Shown: positions 8,380-35,796 of the stretch, piece by piece
Position numbering within the stretch: position 1 is the stretch's first letter
Layout: each line of letters starts with the position of its first letter
Source: a virus
Taxonomy: Duplodnaviria > Caudoviricetes
Virus record (IMG/VR): IMGVR_UViG_3300044633_000159
Coordinates: 1 to 61,096 of that record
Length of the DNA: 61,096 nucleotides
Reading direction: 5' to 3' (one strand)
The notes under the pieces: generated by a model
The model's database searches: none
What the model was told of the DNA's origin: nothing
The model's input: only the letters and a program-made list of their open reading frames with translations
Program-made: the position numbers and the translations under genes

Positions 8380-8608
8380 AATAATAAGTATAATATTTAA
8401 AGATTTGTTTCCATATATCCATTTTACCGTAAGCTACTGGATCAGTGTTTTGCCTTTTATTCATATCTATGTCTATATACCATTTATTTGTTGATATAGC
8501 TCTTGGACTTATTAAGATATTATTTCTAACACACCACATATAAGCTTCTAGTTCTTTAGTAGAATATAGATAATTACCCATATCTATTGTTGACTTTTTC
8601 ATTCCCAC
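8360..8608 (-). CDS. hypothetical protein
   Basis: ORF within the replication operon. Confidence 0.6.
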   Translation of the reverse strand: MGMKKSTIDMGNYLYSTKELEAYMWCVRNNILISPRAISTNKWYIDIDMNKRQNTDPVAYGKMDIWKQIFKYYTYYYEKYKK

Positions 8609-10320
8609 GGAAGTTTATCGCTAGACGTATCTAACGGTATATGAGGTATAAAACACCCTGATCTTGGTTCCCATTTAAAATGTGCTTCTGCGCCATTTTC
8701 ACCTAAGTTTTGGAACTTAACTTTTAATACCTTACATTTAACTGTTTTTTGATCATAGTCTCTATGAACTAATAAACCGTGATAAGACGCATCGTACCAT
8801 TCACCACCACCTTTAATATTGTACATCGTAGGTTCTTCTATTTTACCGTCTCTATCTTTATACATTTTAGTTGGATGAGCAACTACGATAACTAATACAT
8901 CATACTTTTTAGCAAATACCTCTATCTGTTGTAGATATTCTAATGTATAAACGTTTACATCGCCAGAAGCGTCTTGAGCTCTAACCTTATTAAACGGATC
9001 TATGACTAAGCACTTAATACCTTTACGTTTAACTAGTTCTGCGCCTTTTCTTAATACAGACTCTAACGTATAACGTTCCATGTCTATAAAAAAGTAACTA
9101 TTGTTAACGTGGTCTGCTACTTGATTCCATTTATCTCCGTGTATTTCTTCAGGCGAAGGCATATCACCCCAGGTTTTACGCATTAACTTATGAGCATGTA
9201 GATAAGTTGGTTGATTCTCAGGTGAAGCAAAAGCAGTCTTCCAACCATATTTGCCATTATATCCAACAACCATTTGGTCAACAAAGTCAGATTTACCAGA
9301 ACTAGGTATTCCAGTGACGGTAATAAACTGACCAGTATATGTACTGAATATACTATCAAAATTATCCAACCCAATTTGGAAACCAGGTTTAAATCCGTTT
9401 CTAACAAAATCTGTAACATCATCTTCTATGTCTTTAAATGTTTTAACGTTTTCTAATGGAACAGGTCTTGCTTGCGATATTCTCTGAGACAGTTTTTCTT
9501 TACCATACTTTAATAAGTATTCATTAGCGTCTTTACAGTCTTCAAACGATGCTAGATAACAAACTTCAGAACCTAATCTACGTATTAACTCTGTTTGTAA
9601 CGCTTGACCTGCAGCATCAGAATCTACTGCTAATATAATCTTTTCTTTGTCGTCAAAGTAGTCTATACAACTATCTAAGTAATCTAGATTATTAGCATTT
9701 AAAGTAGCACCGTTAGGTACAGATACTACGTTTGTCACTCCAGCTTCGTGTAGAGCTAGAACATCCATTTCACCTTCTACTATTACACAATACTCATATC
9801 CCACGATGCTGTTTATATTGTAAAATACTTTTTCCGCGCCTTTATAAAGTTTAAAATTCTTTTTGGCATCACGGTATTTTATATTAACTAGTTGATCGCC
9901 GACGAAGTAATTAAAGTGTATAGCATTCTCCTCTTTACTAGTCTGAGGCATAAATTCTTTACCATCAGATATCTGTAACTCATAAAGAGTTTCTTTAGAT
10001 ATACCTCGTGTAGCAAACCAATTAACAACCGGTTCGCTTACTTGCATTTCTTCTACGTTTATTTTAGCAGGTGGTTTAATATAAACCTTTTCGCTAGTAC
10101 CTTTACGTTGGTAAGTATGTAGTTGAAAAGTCTTATTACAATTGTGGCAAGTACCTATACCGCGTTCCCAATCGTAAGATGCGCATTTTGCTTTTTCGTT
10201 TTTAGGTTTTCTATCAGAAGAGCATAGCGGACAAACGCCTTGAGTCTTACCTTCTTCTAAACCATACTTGTTAAACGTATCAATCAAGAAGCCATTTATT
10301 TCTGTGTTATTTACTTGCAT
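8599..10320 (-). CDS. DNA primase-helicase (T7 gp4/Twinkle-like)
   Basis: N-terminal CPLC..CHNC zinc ribbon, TOPRIM (VEGEMD, DSD, KDANE), SF4 helicase Walker A GIPSSGKS, VIDP, VAHP. Confidence 0.92.
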   Translation of the reverse strand: MQVNNTEINGFLIDTFNKYGLEEGKTQGVCPLCSSDRKPKNEKAKCASYDWERGIGTCHNCNKTFQLHTYQRKGTSEKVYIKPPAKINVEEMQVSEPVVNWFATRGISKETLYELQISDGKEFMPQTSKEENAIHFNYFVGDQLVNIKYRDAKKNFKLYKGAEKVFYNINSIVGYEYCVIVEGEMDVLALHEAGVTNVVSVPNGATLNANNLDYLDSCIDYFDDKEKIILAVDSDAAGQALQTELIRRLGSEVCYLASFEDCKDANEYLLKYGKEKLSQRISQARPVPLENVKTFKDIEDDVTDFVRNGFKPGFQIGLDNFDSIFSTYTGQFITVTGIPSSGKSDFVDQMVVGYNGKYGWKTAFASPENQPTYLHAHKLMRKTWGDMPSPEEIHGDKWNQVADHVNNSYFFIDMERYTLESVLRKGAELVKRKGIKCLVIDPFNKVRAQDASGDVNVYTLEYLQQIEVFAKKYDVLVIVVAHPTKMYKDRDGKIEEPTMYNIKGGGEWYDASYHGLLVHRDYDQKTVKCKVLKVKFQNLGENGAEAHFKWEPRSGCFIPHIPLDTSSDKLPWE

Positions 10321-16268: not shown

Positions 16269-17696
16269 CTAATTAGATTTTTTACTTTTTTTACCTTCGT
16301 CAACTACGACTTTACCTTCTTCTGAATAAGAGGTTACAGAACTATCATAGGATACTTGAACTTGTTTACCACCGGTTTTAACACATAAGTCTTTTAACTC
16401 AGTACTAAACTGCATTAAAGATACTGCATTAACCTTGTATGGTAAACTATCATAACCTACTCTATCTTCACCATCGTTAATAATTAAGATTTCAGGTTTT
16501 TCTACTGACAGATCTATGTCTAAGTTATGTAGTCTTTGCTTAGATATTTCTTGTGATATATGAGTAACTATGCCACCTATATCGGTAGTACCACCGTTTG
16601 GATTATTAGAAAACCATTTCCAGAAATCCATTACGTCTTCTCTGTTTTTAAGATGATGAAAATTCAAATGTTCAGACCTATATACAAAGTAACTGAAGAA
16701 CACTTCGGCTTCTTCCTTCATAACATACCGCAAACGGTCGATGAGTATAGCATTAACCCATATCTGTTTCTCAGGGTCATCCATACTGCCAGAAAAATCT
16801 AATAATATAATTATTTTCTGCTTTTGTTCTTTACGGTCAACAGGTACATTAACAGTTAAGTCTTTAGTTAAGAACTTAGTACGAAAGTTTGGAAACATTT
16901 TTTGGTATAACTCGATCTGACTAAACTGAGCATAGTCACGCATAATCTTTTTAGCATACTGATCAGAGTTGGATACAAGTTTTTCATCAACTTCTTTTTC
17001 AACCTTGAACTGATCGCCAAGTTTACCGACAATAGATATTTTATCTAGTATATCCATTTTACGCTGTTTACTTAACTCGTTAAAGTCAAGTTGTTCGTTT
17101 ATACTAGGATCAGAATAGGTTGCTCTATCAAAGTCTAAGGTTGTTTCATACTGTAGATCACCTTCTTCTTTTAATTTACCGTCTTGATAAACAGGAGCAC
17201 CACTTATTTGCTTGAATATAGCTATCGCTTGTTCTAACGGAGTATTACCTGGTATAAACTTTTCGAATATAGAGTCATACAAAGATTTTTTAGCTTCATA
17301 GTCTTGCTGTTGACTATCGGAAAGAGAATCAAAGTCTGAGAATTTTTCACTAATATATTCTTTTTCATCTATCATCTTGAAGTAACATACTCTAGCTAAG
17401 TCTTTAATAGTATCTATGGATTTTTCATTCCATACATTAGACTTTATTTTAATATCTGCTTTTGTAGGCGTTAAGTAAGTTACTGGATCTTTAACGAATA
17501 AATCTGAGTTATCATCTTCATCATAAGCGCCAGACCAAGAGTAGTTAGTCCATACACTCGGTTGCCAAGAGTATGAACTATATCTACTTTTACTTTTACT
17601 TTTACCACCATAACCATAACCATAACTTCCGTAGTTGTCATACTCAGACACATACTCGTCTTCGTCACCCCAATAAGAATTTTTAAATCTGCTCAT
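16269..17696 (-). CDS. VWA (MIDAS) domain protein, ViaA-like partner of MoxR ATPase
   Basis: LLDFSGSM, NGGTTD, IINDGED; directly downstream of the AAA+ gene. Confidence 0.8.
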   Translation of the reverse strand: MSRFKNSYWGDEDEYVSEYDNYGSYGYGYGGKSKSKSRYSSYSWQPSVWTNYSWSGAYDEDDNSDLFVKDPVTYLTPTKADIKIKSNVWNEKSIDTIKDLARVCYFKMIDEKEYISEKFSDFDSLSDSQQQDYEAKKSLYDSIFEKFIPGNTPLEQAIAIFKQISGAPVYQDGKLKEEGDLQYETTLDFDRATYSDPSINEQLDFNELSKQRKMDILDKISIVGKLGDQFKVEKEVDEKLVSNSDQYAKKIMRDYAQFSQIELYQKMFPNFRTKFLTKDLTVNVPVDRKEQKQKIIILLDFSGSMDDPEKQIWVNAILIDRLRYVMKEEAEVFFSYFVYRSEHLNFHHLKNREDVMDFWKWFSNNPNGGTTDIGGIVTHISQEISKQRLHNLDIDLSVEKPEILIINDGEDRVGYDSLPYKVNAVSLMQFSTELKDLCVKTGGKQVQVSYDSSVTSYSEEGKVVVDEGKKSKKSN

Positions 17697-17714
17697 GTTA
17701 GTTTGTTTTAAGGA

Positions 17715-18746
17715 TTAATCCATTATTGAAGATACAACTTGCTTTTTAGATAACGTAGTATACAACTCTGTAGCAGACTTGATTAAAGACGCATGATTTG
17801 TAGCTAAATCGTCTGACACTGTTAATTTCTTAATATCTCTAATAGCATTAGCCAATAAACCGATGTCATTAGTATATTTAGATTTTTCTTCACCAGTAAT
17901 TAAGTTATTAGCTTGCAACTCGTTAACAATAGCACCTAAGTCATCAGATAATTTTCTGAACTTTAATGTACTTTGATATTTCTTAAGAGTCTCAGCGATT
18001 AATGCAGGTTTTTTAGAGAACTCAGCGATAAAGTTTAATGAGTCTGGACCACATTCTTCGTATACTGTATAAGCAGTAACTGCAACCCTTGGAGATATAG
18101 TAATACCACCACGATGATATTCTTGAAGTAGATAAGGTATAATAGGATCTACATTGCCTTCGCCAAACTTAGTTTCTAACAACTTGTTATAACTAGCTTC
18201 AGTATAATTATCCCATACGACATTTAATTCTAACGGAAAACGCTCCATTAACGCTTTTAAAGATGCATTCTTAGAGAATTCTTCACGAGTTCTATTAGTA
18301 CAACAGATAATAAACTTTGTTTTAATAGGAAAGATCTGCGTACCGTTTCTGAATATCTTAGAAGATAATATATCTTTTAATTGCTCGAGGATAAAGTCTG
18401 GAGCATCGAATAATTCTTCAAAAATAACATACTCATGATTCATAAATGAATTCTCAACAAGGTATTCGATTTTACCTGTTTTCTCGAACGTAGGTATATC
18501 TAAACCGCCGAATAGTCTGTCAGTGGTCATACCTGTACCCATTGTAATAACGTAAGGATTAATGCCTTTTTCAGCAAGATACGCCATTGTTAATTCTGAT
18601 TTACCATGTCCACCAGGACCGTACAAGACGATGTTTTTACCTGTCTTCAACCCAATATCTAAGATATTAAGTGATTTGTCCATGAATACGAAGTCTGCGC
18701 CTACGCCAGATACTTCTACCGCTGTTGATTTTTTAGCTTTCGCCAT
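17715..18746 (-). CDS. MoxR/RavA-like AAA+ ATPase
   Basis: Walker A GPGGHGKS, Walker B IFEE, RLFGG, CTN, ALMERF. Confidence 0.82.
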   Translation of the reverse strand: MAKAKKSTAVEVSGVGADFVFMDKSLNILDIGLKTGKNIVLYGPGGHGKSELTMAYLAEKGINPYVITMGTGMTTDRLFGGLDIPTFEKTGKIEYLVENSFMNHEYVIFEELFDAPDFILEQLKDILSSKIFRNGTQIFPIKTKFIICCTNRTREEFSKNASLKALMERFPLELNVVWDNYTEASYNKLLETKFGEGNVDPIIPYLLQEYHRGGITISPRVAVTAYTVYEECGPDSLNFIAEFSKKPALIAETLKKYQSTLKFRKLSDDLGAIVNELQANNLITGEEKSKYTNDIGLLANAIRDIKKLTVSDDLATNHASLIKSATELYTTLSKKQVVSSIMD

Positions 18747-18796: not shown

Positions 18797-18860
18797 TGAT
18801 TAAGAAGGACTCGAACCTTCAACTCAGTCTATGTCCCTGAGTCATCGCCTGATTTAATCG
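18797..18860 (-). ncRNA. Minimal tRNA-like RNA with reduced D-arm and CAU at the loop centre
   Basis: Acceptor GATTAA/TTAATC, canonical T-arm GAAGG-TTCGAGT-CCTTC, stem CTCAG/CTGAG. Confidence 0.55.
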
Positions 18861-18892
18861 ACCAACACGCCTTATCGAGCGTGTATAGCAAG

Positions 18893-19081
18893 CTATTTAC
18901 GTCGCCACGCTTTATGTACTTTAGCACTAAGCTCTTGACTAACTATTTGAATTGTATTACCTGTTTTATGCTCAATAATAGGTATATAACTATAGGTTTT
19001 TGTAGTAGAACATTCTACACAACTTTTATATCCTAGACCTAGTCTTACTGGATGCAACTCATTACCACATCTACAATACAT
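18893..19081 (-). CDS. Small C4 zinc-finger protein (DksA/TraR-like finger)
   Basis: CxC..L...RL......CVEC. Confidence 0.55.
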   Translation of the reverse strand: MYCRCGNELHPVRLGLGYKSCVECSTTKTYSYIPIIEHKTGNTIQIVSQELSAKVHKAWRRK

Positions 19082-19090
19082 ACTAATTAT

Positions 19091-19318
19091 TTAAGGTTTA
19101 ACAAACTCGAACTCGTAATTATATTCTGCTAAATTAATATCAGACTCTCTTGTTTCCATTTGAGCATCGATAGCAATATTGAATATTGAATTTCTAATAA
19201 ACTGAGCAACTATCTGTCTCTCAGGAAATGTACACTTAACTAATGGTTTGCCATTGTAAGTCCAGTAGCCGTTTTTTACTTTGATTTTTGCTTGCATGTT
19301 GTTAATTTTTTCGTTCAC
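19091..19318 (-). CDS. hypothetical protein
   Basis: ORF after class I promoter; true start is probably the ATG near 19297. Confidence 0.6.
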   Translation of the reverse strand: MNEKINNMQAKIKVKNGYWTYNGKPLVKCTFPERQIVAQFIRNSIFNIAIDAQMETRESDINLAEYNYEFEFVKP

Positions 19319-19322
19319 GTAT

Positions 19323-19353
19323 ATTATCCTACTAAAATATTATATAGTCCGTG
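19323..19353 (-). promoter_or_regulatory. Class I phage promoter
   Basis: CACGGACT-N17-GATAAT. Confidence 0.8.
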
Positions 19354-19503
19354 CAGATTAACAAGCACAGTATATGTAATAACTACTAAGATAACAACTA
19401 CTAATAATACTATTGATTCTCTGTTTTCTTTCACTGTATTTAATATTTAGTGTCCACAGTAGGAATCGAACCTACGACCTGATGATTATGTAGCTCAAAT
19501 GGT

Positions 19504-19527
19504 TAAAATAGTTTATTTATGTGTAAT
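19504..19527 (+). promoter_or_regulatory. Class II promoter upstream of the HNH gene
   Basis: TAAAAT-N11-GTGTAAT. Confidence 0.6.
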
Positions 19528-19558
19528 AATATAACTATATAACTAAACGAATTGAAAA

Positions 19559-20104
19559 ATGGAAAAAGAAAAACTACAAGAACAAATATTATTGTCTAAG
19601 TCATCTAGAGAAATAGCTAAACATTTTGATGTTAGCCAAAGCACTATAAGATATTGGACAAAAAAATACCAATTAAGTATGCTGTTTAATAGCGAATATA
19701 ATGGTTTAAAGTGTAGAGTTTGTAACTCTTCATTAGTAAATATGCAGAAAGTTTACTGTTCAAATAACTGCAAAGTAAAAGGTCATTATATTAATTCTAA
19801 AAACAATACTAATTCTGTATATAGTCAAGAAAGTAGAGGTATAGAGCGTAAAAAACACTTTATGAACATACTAGGTGGTAAATGCAATTCTTGCGGTTAT
19901 AATAAGAATATTACCGCGTTAGAATTCCACCATGTAGATCCAACTACTAAAAAACTACAACTAAACATGAGAACTTTTTCCAATAATTCAATGAACGTTT
20001 TAATTGAAGAGGTTTACAAGTGTGAATTACTATGTGCTAATTGCCATAGAGAACACCATAATCCTCGTTTTAACTACTTTATTCAATCTGCTCTAACCGA
20101 CTGA
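19559..20104 (+). CDS. HNH endonuclease with N-terminal HTH and zinc fingers (homing-type mobile gene)
   Basis: SSREIAKHFDVSQSTIRYW HTH; CRVC..YCS..C; GGKC..CGY....ALEFHH..P...C.LLCANCHREHH; the only convincing + strand gene in the leftward arm. Confidence 0.88.
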   Translation: MEKEKLQEQILLSKSSREIAKHFDVSQSTIRYWTKKYQLSMLFNSEYNGLKCRVCNSSLVNMQKVYCSNNCKVKGHYINSKNNTNSVYSQESRGIERKKHFMNILGGKCNSCGYNKNITALEFHHVDPTTKKLQLNMRTFSNNSMNVLIEEVYKCELLCANCHREHHNPRFNYFIQSALTD

Positions 20105-20154
20105 GCTATGTGGACTACCGAGATTACCTAGCGCTACGTGTATAGCACTACGCT

Positions 20155-20646
20155 CTACCTATCCATAAGCGATTGTAATTTTTTTAACATCGGTAATAAT
20201 TCGCTGAACATCTCGGCACGCTTTTGTTGCTCATCAAGTGTTTTCTGCGTAGGCATCTCACGTGCTTTGATCCATTTACCATTTTTAAATACCTTTATAT
20301 TTCTATAATAAAAGTCTCCGTTAGGTAATAACTCATGATCTTCATTGGTAACGATCTGACCATACTTAGTCCAGACACCTAGAGCAAAACCTCGACGCTC
20401 AGCTTCTTTGGTCATCTCTAATACCTTGCAACAATCACTACTTGCTGGTACAGTTATAGATGGTTGTTTACCATTATCTATATCCATCCAGAATACGTGA
20501 CCTTGATTGGTTAAATTCCAAGGAAATGCTGATTTAAGGTCGATATCCATATCGATACACTTTCCTAGTTCTTCTTGATTTCTAAATCTTAAGAACTCTT
20601 CTACAAATAATTCTTTCTGTACTCTTGTTAACTTGCTAATTTTCAT
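20155..20646 (-). CDS. hypothetical protein
   Basis: AF.W..T.QGH.FW motif seen in phage hypothetical proteins. Confidence 0.7.
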   Translation of the reverse strand: MKISKLTRVQKELFVEEFLRFRNQEELGKCIDMDIDLKSAFPWNLTNQGHVFWMDIDNGKQPSITVPASSDCCKVLEMTKEAERRGFALGVWTKYGQIVTNEDHELLPNGDFYYRNIKVFKNGKWIKAREMPTQKTLDEQQKRAEMFSELLPMLKKLQSLMDR

Positions 20647-20648
20647 GC

Positions 20649-20900
20649 TTATTTAATATTAATGGTTAATGACTGAAATCCTTGTTCTGTACTTACATGC
20701 TTGTGATTCCACAATCGAGTGCAAGCGAACTTCTTACTCTTACTAAACGTAGACTTTTGTCTAGTTGGTAACCTAAACCATTCAGAGTTCGTTAGTCCGC
20801 TGCATCTTCTCTCTTGTGAGTTTAAACGCCTATGCTCGTTTATTCTATCTCTTTTTAAATTCTTAATATACTCGTGGGCAATTACTGCTGCTGCTTCCAT
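20649..20900 (-). CDS. hypothetical protein
   Basis: ORF in early cluster. Confidence 0.55.
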   Translation of the reverse strand: MEAAAVIAHEYIKNLKRDRINEHRRLNSQERRCSGLTNSEWFRLPTRQKSTFSKSKKFACTRLWNHKHVSTEQGFQSLTINIK

Positions 20901-34251: not shown

Positions 34252-35796
34252 ATGTCAGACGCTATAGTCAAAAATTTAAGTTTCGGTAAAGACGCGAGTG
34301 ATAAAGTATTTGCCGGTATAGAGAAGTTATCAAAAGCAGTAAGTTCTACACTAGGAGCAAGTGGCAAATGTGTTCTACTTGAAGATTCAACAGGTAGACC
34401 TGTCATTACCAAAGATGGTGTAACCGTTGCTGATTCAATTATATTGTTAGATCCTGTAGAAAATATGGGAGCAACTTTATTAAAAGAAGCAGCGCGAAAA
34501 ACTGTTAGAGAAGCAGGTGATGGTACAACTACAGCCACTGTGTTAGCACACGCTATATTAAAGAATGCTTATAAAGTAGAAAACCCAGATACTAGAAAGA
34601 TTAAAGAAGGTATTAACAAAGCTGTTGACAACGTTGTTAAATATCTTGAAGATATGGCAGTTTTAGTTGATGATAATATGTTAGATCACATCGCTACTAT
34701 ATCTACAAACAATGATCCTGAATTAGGTAAGTTAGTTGGTAATGCTTTTAGAGCGGTAGGTAATACTGGTATTGTAATGATGGAAACATCTTCCGATGCT
34801 GAATGTAGTTTACAATTAGTTGAAGGAGTGCAATGCTCAATGGGTTTAACAAACTCACATTTTATAACTAATCATAAGAATAAGACAGCAGAACTAGATA
34901 ATCCTTTAGTTTTATTAGTTGAGTCACCAATAGAGAACGTCCGTCAACTACAAAAGATATTAGAGTATGTTATAAAGAACAATAGATCTTTATTAATTGT
35001 TGGTGATATGGAACAGATAGTATTATCTACATTAGCAATGAATAAGTCTAAAGGTAATATAAAAATCAATGTTATAAATGCACCAACTTATGGTATTAAT
35101 AGAAAAGAGATATTTGATGATCTTGCTTTATTAACTGGTGCAACTTTAATAAACGAAGATCTTGGTGATGATTTAGATTTGATAGATCCGTCAATGCTTG
35201 GCGTTTGTTTTAAAAGTATAACAAACCACGAAGAAACAATACTCCACGTTGGAGAACCAAATGAAGAAGTTTTAGATATAATTACTGATATTAAGAAATC
35301 ATTATCAGAAAACAATAATAGCGCTACTATTATAAAACTAGAAAAAAGATTAGCTAGGTTAACAGCAAAAATATCTGTAGTTAAAGTTGGCGCTAATTCA
35401 GAAATAGAGTTAAAAGAAAAGTCGGATAGAATTGAAGACGCTATTTGTGCTACAAAAGCCGCTATTAAAGAAGGTATCGTCCCAGGTGGAGGAATAGCTT
35501 TATTAAACGCTTCATATAATATAGATACTTTTTCTATTGGTGAAGAAATATTATTAGATTCTATTAGATCACCATTTAATACAATATTAAGTAATGCTGG
35601 AATAGAAGTTATGTCAGAAAAGATTGTAACAGGTATTGGTTATGGTTTAAATGTTATAACTGGAGAAACAGTAGATATGATTAAAGCAGGTATTATTGAT
35701 CCACTACTTGTTACAAAGAGTGCTTTGAAAAATGCTGCGTCTGTTGCTACAACGATACTTTCAACTGATTGTGTAATTAATAACTTGAGAGCATAA
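34252..35796 (+). CDS. groEL: Phage chaperonin GroEL
   Basis: ITKDGVTVA, AGDGTTTATVLA, EGIVPGGG, GIIDP; lacks the C-terminal GGM tail. Confidence 0.95.
   Translation: MSDAIVKNLSFGKDASDKVFAGIEKLSKAVSSTLGASGKCVLLEDSTGRPVITKDGVTVADSIILLDPVENMGATLLKEAARKTVREAGDGTTTATVLAHAILKNAYKVENPDTRKIKEGINKAVDNVVKYLEDMAVLVDDNMLDHIATISTNNDPELGKLVGNAFRAVGNTGIVMMETSSDAECSLQLVEGVQCSMGLTNSHFITNHKNKTAELDNPLVLLVESPIENVRQLQKILEYVIKNNRSLLIVGDMEQIVLSTLAMNKSKGNIKINVINAPTYGINRKEIFDDLALLTGATLINEDLGDDLDLIDPSMLGVCFKSITNHEETILHVGEPNEEVLDIITDIKKSLSENNNSATIIKLEKRLARLTAKISVVKVGANSEIELKEKSDRIEDAICATKAAIKEGIVPGGGIALLNASYNIDTFSIGEEILLDSIRSPFNTILSNAGIEVMSEKIVTGIGYGLNVITGETVDMIKAGIIDPLLVTKSALKNAASVATTILSTDCVINNLRA

Follow-up and report, generated by a model that had tools for sequence, protein, structure and literature searches.

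The DNA analysed here, which we refer to as the window, is the whole 61,096-bp record of an IMG/VR lake phage (33% G+C, estimated 95% complete) whose gene content includes a terminase, a portal protein, a GroEL-like protein, a primase-helicase and a ribonucleotide reductase. Its sole ordinary tRNA gene encodes tRNA(CAU) on the minus strand and is split into two pieces, which lie between a 163-aa gene (20155..20646) on one side and a 75-aa gene (19091..19318) on the other. The locus is made up as follows:

20086..20115, minus strand: 5' fragment of tRNA(CAU), 30 nt, with the acceptor 5' strand, the D arm and anticodon-stem bases 1-3
19491..20085, no strand assigned: HNH cassette insert, 595 bp, which replaces GACT (tRNA strand) at tRNA positions 30-33
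19559..20104, plus strand: predicted HTH-HNH homing endonuclease gene, 181 aa (PHROG 2255, N-terminal HTH, alignment A1)
19491..19505, plus strand (that of the HNH gene): putative D-arm-like remnant TAGCTCAAATGGTTA at the end of the insert, by direct reading
19451..19490, minus strand: 3' fragment of tRNA(CAU), beginning at anticodon base C34 and ending at the discriminator A, with the T arm and the acceptor 3' strand

Read directly from the minus strand, the two halves carry what the initial annotation had seen in them, that is a 7-bp acceptor stem together with intact D and T arms. In the 5' fragment, a 7-nt acceptor strand and TA precede the D arm (stem of 4 bp, loop of 9 nt), which is followed by a single A and GAT; the 3' fragment opens with CATAA and the 3' anticodon-stem strand, after which come 5 nt of variable loop, the T arm (5 bp), the acceptor strand and the discriminator A, and the acceptor strands of the two fragments pair at 7/7 positions. 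The spacing between the halves, first given as about 595 bp, comes to exactly 595 bp (19491..20085) when measured against natural contigs that lack the insert (see below). Likewise, GATTGA had been noted as an unexpected 5' anticodon strand; the reading is correct and looks odd because GAT comes from the tRNA and TGA from the insert.

As a contiguous cloverleaf, no tRNA is detectable: ARAGORN at default settings returned 0 tRNAs for the whole window and Rfam none at gathering score, with the 3' fragment giving a partial Rfam tRNA match of 17.7 bits. When allowed introns (-i), ARAGORN called a tRNA-Phe(aaa) with a 569-nt 'intron' and a long extra arm, a forced solution that we rejected. Nor could the junction be placed by this program, as 895 of 999 combinations tried at an 80% threshold gave a tRNA call with nearly equal scores. 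We also considered and rejected that the pieces stem from two neighbouring tRNA genes, each cut from one side, given the complete acceptor pairing and the existence of an intact allele in nature.

The insert and its HNH gene

Consistent with its earlier description as almost wholly an HNH gene on the opposite strand, the insert is coding over 527 of its 595 bases (19559..20085, plus strand), which leaves 68 non-coding. The 3' end of the ORF reaches into the tRNA 5' fragment, so that codon Q176 takes its third base from there and the five final codons plus the stop are tRNA sequence as well; the stop (TGA, 20102..20104) coincides with tRNA bases 12-14 at the edge of D stem and loop and thus does lie inside the D arm, as had been stated. 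The 181-aa protein combines an N-terminal helix-turn-helix with a C-terminal HNH nuclease and matches PHROG 2255 'HNH endonuclease' (E 1.3e-22) as well as four other HNH PHROGs. Its Pfam HNH score (14.9 bits) falls under the 21.4 cut-off, and searches with the protein found nothing significant among PDB sequences and nothing near cut-offs in NCBIfam. In alignment A1, the invariant core ends with CANCHREHHNP; A1 comprises three sequences including that of the window, and its 34 invariant columns are hence the window's residues by construction.

At the other end of the insert, TAGCTCAAATGGTTA is the reverse complement of a segment to which the initial annotation had assigned a pairing role. Apart from one additional A, it matches the D-arm motif TAGCTCAATGGTT of tRNAs that sit beside HNH relatives in loci L051 and L106. 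It looks like the remnant of a tRNA that may once have travelled with the HNH gene. The tRNA-proximal end of the insert resembles the lost bases plus two extra letters and could be read as a diverged copy of the target instead of a clean replacement.

A class II promoter of its own, as had been proposed for the HNH gene, did not hold up. Between 19000 and 20700, 10 sigma-70-type sites compare with 8.8 +/- 3.3 in shuffled sequence, by a consensus that may not be the phage's own; one such site (19503..19530, plus strand) is upstream of the ORF. Over the 70 bases upstream of and into the ORF start (19491..19560), no repeat longer than 14 nt is shared with the rest of the window, and we found no phage-specific repeated motif upstream of the HNH ORF in the window. 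The motif TATATAACTA occurs 33 times versus 23.1 +/- 4.8 expected, a count reached by 3 of 100 shuffles.

Alleles with and without the insert

Uninterrupted alleles from related phages had been called for as a way to define the junctions, and these exist. Among 23 sequencing runs listed as matching 19100..20500, we compared four, namely two DNA runs of one single study (X3, X4), a run from a different study (X2) and, as the sole RNA run, X23, which matches at 20219-20481, outside the tRNA, with less than 90% identity. In the contigs from X3 (1474 nt) and X4 (1134 nt), position 19490 is joined to 20086 via AGTC (plus strand) and the 595 bp are absent, so the breaks in our tRNA fall at 29/30 and 33/34. 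Around the tRNA, mismatches to the window amount to 1 in 149 nt for X3 and 0 in 159 + 30 nt for X4; within the tRNA, the 5' fragment has 0 other letters relative to the X4 contig and the 3' fragment 0 to 1 relative to X3 and X4. The insert-less form is a perfect 75-nt tRNA-Met(cat) with an ARAGORN score of 122.5, and its anticodon CAU may mean Met or Ile2 (lysidine).

Conversely, a 658-nt contig from X2 spans 19450-20107 with the insert in place and a single mismatch; among the runs compared, this is the only locus outside the source sample where the insert was seen. With the HNH gene present in X2, missing from X3 and X4 and flanked near the tRNA by sequence that differs at 0 to 1 positions, both alleles occur in nature and the locus therefore shows presence/absence polymorphism. 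At 0 to 1 mismatch from the intact allele, the fragments can show intact arms without any selection.

The anticodon arm of the insert-less allele is the same as that in the intact tRNAs of L087 and L088. Moreover, the 27-nt 5' part recurs in 10 metagenome loci with an uninterrupted tRNA in every one of them, nine with CAU and one with another anticodon arm. Viral contigs gave 0 hits each when scanned for exact copies of the 5' half, of the 3' half or of both ends 40-70 nt apart, and blastn of 19000..20700 against the phage collection in near and distant modes gave no match.

HNH relatives in phage tRNA arrays

Searching with the 181-aa protein alone returned 37 loci, the three best of which lie within tRNA arrays. 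With alignment A1, at least 516 relatives were found in IMG/VR and the best 80 kept; together with L049, L050 and L051 from the single-protein search, the 79 of these that were new make up the 82 loci examined. A tRNA lies within 1.5 kb of the HNH relative at 74 of the 82, and 93 of 328 tRNAs in total are at most 150 nt from the HNH ORF, their anticodons being led by TCT (21), CAT (15) and GTT (10). In five of the ten best matches it is a tRNA(CAT) that abuts the HNH gene. The annotated phage collection adds 339 records with HNH relatives, which are named 'HNH endonuclease' wherever annotated.

Split tRNAs were seen in the window and in at least five other loci, where the acceptor strand of an orphan T arm pairs 7/7 (with at most one G-T) with an upstream tRNA-like 5' end and the HNH gene lies in between. 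The two parts lie 640 nt apart in the window, 695 in L051, 674 in L106, 789 in L112, 664 in L153 and 699 in L141, and in three of the other loci (L051, L106, L112) the split gene is again a tRNA(CAU). Nested tRNA wreckage, in which a cassette with an intact tRNA and usually an HNH gene sits inside the remains of a resident tRNA, was located as follows:

L051, 1408-2127: resident tRNA(CAU) reduced to 11 nt of its 5' end and the CATAA 3' piece, with an intact tRNA-Met and an antisense HNH gene between
L106, about 1398-2100: arranged as in L051, with the HNH gene in sense orientation
L101, about 8550-8700: nested intact tRNA-Met without an HNH gene
L112, 1261-2085: cassette of an odd long-arm tRNA-like gene plus HNH; the 3' piece keeps the whole loop
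L153 and L141: further loci of this kind

Exactly 5' of the CAU anticodon is where the tRNA breaks in the window, L051 and L106, and the 3' fragment begins with CATAA in all three. This 3' junction, immediately 5' of C34, is common to the window, L051, L106, L121, L099 and L101. The 5' junction is variable and lies after base 11, about base 26 or base 29. One precise and one ragged junction would fit a break in the anticodon loop that was then repaired. Histories differ in that the cassettes of most related loci bring an intact tRNA and the window's cassette comes without one.

Altered anticodon loops were observed in three tRNAs of this collection. L098 (about 1900-1975) has a tRNA(CAU)-like gene with an 11-nt anticodon loop that contains the 9-mer GCTACATAA, as found at the window's 3' junction; L096 (3928-4002) has an otherwise intact tRNA-Met with the loop TACATAA, that is an A at position 33; and L102 (2062-2131) has a degenerate tRNA with AACATAA beside what is the closest full-length HNH relative among the matches listed. 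All three may be endonuclease-resistant alleles or footprints.

Several HNH-relative loci yielded tRNA calls of unusual type, including 'tRNA-Ile(tat)' genes of about 93 nt with a long extra arm and 4-base anticodons (gtag in L111, ctag in L098). The loci grouped for such calls are L049/L050 (1846-1938), L111, L120, L121, L131 and L177.

Variation and tRNA-like genes around the locus

The tRNA spot is a hotspot of variation. In the X2 contig, 91 bases next to the tRNA (19359..19449) are missing and 5 other letters stand in their place, and in the X4 contig 71 nt separate the tRNA from the upstream gene compared with 22 nt in the window (20115..20138). In relatives of the phage, the position of the window's tRNA(CAU) is taken by tRNA-like genes that are odd in type and hypervariable. 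In L092, one such gene of the kind typical for this phage group lies directly upstream of a tRNA(CAU), and the 3' trailer is similar. The odd tRNA-like genes are listed here by locus:

L002: 4014 and 4175
L003: 5135
L004: 4932-5009
L005: 4975-5040
L007: 4984
L008: 1411
L012, L021, L024 and L025

They share a conserved acceptor (AGTCAGG/CCTGACT), a class-II-like D arm and a T arm, and have long and unrelated anticodon regions with some loops of 9 nt or far larger. Only that of L005 reaches the Rfam tRNA threshold (42.5 bits), and one is called 'tRNA-Ser(act)' by ARAGORN.

A second tRNA-like element is found in the window at about 18797..18864 (minus strand), between the gene of a MoxR-like ATPase and a 62-aa ORF, with a counterpart at the same place in L005 and L006. 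Its acceptor measures 6-7 bp; where a D arm would be expected there is a 10-nt linker, and beyond this come a stem of 6-7 bp that closes a loop of 9 nt, a canonical T arm (GGTTCGAGTCC) and a hairpin. Both ARAGORN and Rfam missed it, and its fold energy is no better than that of shuffles (z -0.28). The ATPase, an AAA protein of MoxR type (Pfam bpMoxR, E 1.6e-14), is encoded next to a 475-aa protein without a family match (16269..18746), and the GroEL-like chaperonin lies at 34252..35796 (PHROG 5725, E 3.7e-130).

Via the ATPase gene, 47 related loci were collected, 14 of which have a phage tmRNA gene a few kb downstream:

tmRNA loci: L010, L011, L013, L014, L016, L017, L018, L021, L022, L025, L030, L032, L034 and L047

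At 9 to 32 residues, the tag peptides that they encode are of unusual length, and many end with AVAA. The HNH-relative locus L106 also has a tmRNA (2105-2642, Rfam 66.2 bits); none was found in the window.

Discussion

Our findings make it very likely that a selfish, free-standing (intron-less) homing endonuclease gene of HTH-HNH type was inserted antisense into the anticodon loop of a tRNA(CAU) gene, replacing positions 30-33 and breaking the tRNA, and that this happened recently. The initial annotation had offered invasion and inactivation of the tRNA by a homing gene, with the arms still conserved, as one of two readings, and this one is borne out by the uninterrupted tRNA in near-identical phages, by the four replaced bases and by the association of the HNH family with tRNA arrays. 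Both fragments presumably still look perfect because the insertion is recent, and with its gene broken the phage probably makes no functional tRNA(CAU).

As for how the insert may have come to lie there, we envisage, by analogy to SegB, SegF and MobE of phage T4, that the HNH enzyme would cut a co-infecting relative's intact tRNA(CAU) allele within its anticodon loop or beside it, and that repair off flanking homology would then copy the HNH-bearing allele into the cut genome. The HNH-bearing allele itself would be immune, its own target being destroyed; indeed, the four anticodon-arm bases that are replaced lie at what would be the target of the enzyme. The insert could have been established by a break in the anticodon loop that was sealed with one precise (3') and one ragged (5') repair junction. 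On this analogy, the enzyme is probably active and may cut near the anticodon loop.

An alternative view would see the HNH gene as a dead or domesticated passenger of a one-off illegitimate recombination, with the tRNA broken and homing over. That the ORF borrows its last five codons and stop from the tRNA, that a D-arm-like stretch marks the other end of the insert and that the insert was seen in one independent sample only would all be in keeping with such an event. However, the ORF is intact and has its catalytic core (its agreement with the 34 invariant columns of A1 holding by construction), and the same 3' junction is found in L051 and L106, with HNHs that are 49-52% identical. Since this recurrence points to repeated, site-specific events, we regard the passenger scenario as unlikely.

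The other reading of the initial annotation, a protein-spliced tRNA intron or a split tRNA whose halves would be held together by the acceptor stem and by pairing of the insert ends and be ligated or used unligated, fares considerably worse. To be sure, the acceptor, D and T arms are intact, the insert ends do pair at 9 of 10 positions, as had been reported, and splicing of a 5' exon ending in AT to the 3' exon starting with CATAA would produce a loop of 7 nt above a stem from which one base bulges. Yet the arms would be expected to look intact anyway at 0 to 1 mismatches from the intact allele, and the pairing, though present, is nothing unusual for DNA this rich in A+T, with an energy at chance level (-8.4 kcal/mol compared with -6.5 +/- 3.0 for 2000 control pairs from the window, 23.5% of which are equal or better). 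More importantly, neither junction retains what the intact allele has at tRNA positions 30-33, so that excision, wherever it took place, could not give back the native anticodon arm with its four bases. Protein-spliced tRNA introns have a bulge-helix-bulge at their exon-intron borders, usually at position 37/38, whereas the borders here are at 29/30 and 33/34 and show, in agreement with the earlier reading, no such motif by eye. Scanning 29 phage ORFs with PHROGs and 37 with Pfam brought up no candidate for an RNA ligase, RtcB, Pnkp or a splicing endonuclease. Finally, L051 keeps no more than 11 nt of the 5' fragment and has a whole replacement tRNA inside, which fits wreckage. So to our minds, splicing or split-tRNA use at this locus is highly improbable.

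Still less can be said for a self-splicing group I (or II) intron that carries an antisense homing endonuclease gene. Group I introns do occur in the anticodon loops of bacterial and phage tRNA genes, and those in cyanobacterial tRNA-fMet carry an endonuclease gene, so there is precedent. Nonetheless, Rfam models of group I and II introns matched nowhere in 19000..20600 at E<=10, nor did they match six related HNH loci at E<=0.1, and with 527 of 595 bases coding on the other strand the 68 that are left offer, as had been pointed out, no room for a ribozyme core. Continuity of the exons is also lacking, given that neither junction keeps the four bases whose return on excision would restore the gene, and we see practically no chance for this explanation. 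As to an assembly chimera in which the assembler misjoined the HNH gene into the tRNA, the window is a metagenome-assembled record, but the X2 contig from an independent study crosses both junctions with 1 mismatch, which shows that the insert-bearing allele is no artefact of assembly and leaves next to nothing in favour of this idea.

Returning to invasion by a homing gene, the related loci allow for a wider and clearly more tentative proposal, which we think has somewhat less than an even chance of being right: that this HNH lineage reads the DNA of the tRNA anticodon stem-loop, breaks it just 5' of the anticodon and moves as a tRNA-overwriting cassette together with a replacement tRNA. Such cassettes would overwrite the 5' two-fifths of the resident tRNA and would usually bring along an intact, presumably cleavage-resistant tRNA (L051, L106 and L101; a tRNA-Ala in L153). 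This would amount to a drive of the type 'kill the resident tRNA, bring your own', with the window representing a cargo-less copy that left the phage without tRNA(CAU). The altered loops of L096 (TACATAA) and L098 (11 nt) would then be resistant alleles or footprints of conflict.

What follows from our analysis is, first of all, a ruling against a tempting reading, as the locus lends no support to a novel bacterial tRNA intron or split tRNA. Instead, the locus provides a clean natural case of a homing endonuclease gene that resides inside another gene without an intron or intein to shield it, with both alleles present in lake phage populations. Our data also suggest, without proving it, that one branch of phage HNH genes is aimed at tRNA anticodon loops, often with a replacement tRNA, and if true, this would help explain why phage tRNA arrays are mosaic and littered with fragments. 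For annotation, tRNA fragments that flank HNH genes are to be taken as homing wreckage rather than as intron-bearing tRNAs. The family-wide pattern of anticodon-loop targeting and nested replacement tRNAs may merit a study of its own.

Comparison with known systems

That homing endonuclease genes occur free-standing in the tRNA clusters of phages is already established. SegB of phage T4, a GIY-YIG enzyme, is described as recognising the T-psi-C motif, cutting the 3' ends of tRNA genes and driving the inheritance of its own gene along with neighbouring tRNAs, its gene being absent from close relatives (PMC2330249). It resembles the window's gene in being a free-standing homing gene among phage tRNA genes with a target within these (PMC2330249) and differs in family and in that its gene lies between tRNA genes, whereas the window has an HNH gene, a break in the anticodon loop and a tRNA that is destroyed. 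[quoted passage not shown] As described in these sources, the T5 and L-array genes lie between or beside tRNA genes, and that of the window lies inside one.

Closer in position are the endonuclease-bearing group I introns of tRNA genes, which have in common with the window an insertion in the anticodon loop, a tRNA(CAU)-type gene and presence/absence polymorphism. In contrast to these, the window has no ribozyme core, an ORF in antisense and four exon bases lost; with neither the core nor these bases, the interrupted gene would find no rescue on the level of RNA. Another call made by the intron option of ARAGORN is the tRNA-Stop of Vibrio phage pVa5, of which its authors warn that it may be an artefact (PMC5746245). 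The window is like pVa5, so far as described there, in that its tRNA is found by the intron option only and has coding DNA on the kilobase scale inside (PMC5746245), but in the window, the existence of an intact allele proves that the halves belong to one real tRNA. In the literature searched, outside of which most subscription journals lie, we found no description of an HNH gene in an anticodon loop without an intron or of cassettes with a replacement tRNA. Hence, what sets the window apart from the systems above is that its endonuclease gene lies inside the anticodon loop of a tRNA that no intron rescues, and that related cassettes carry a replacement tRNA.
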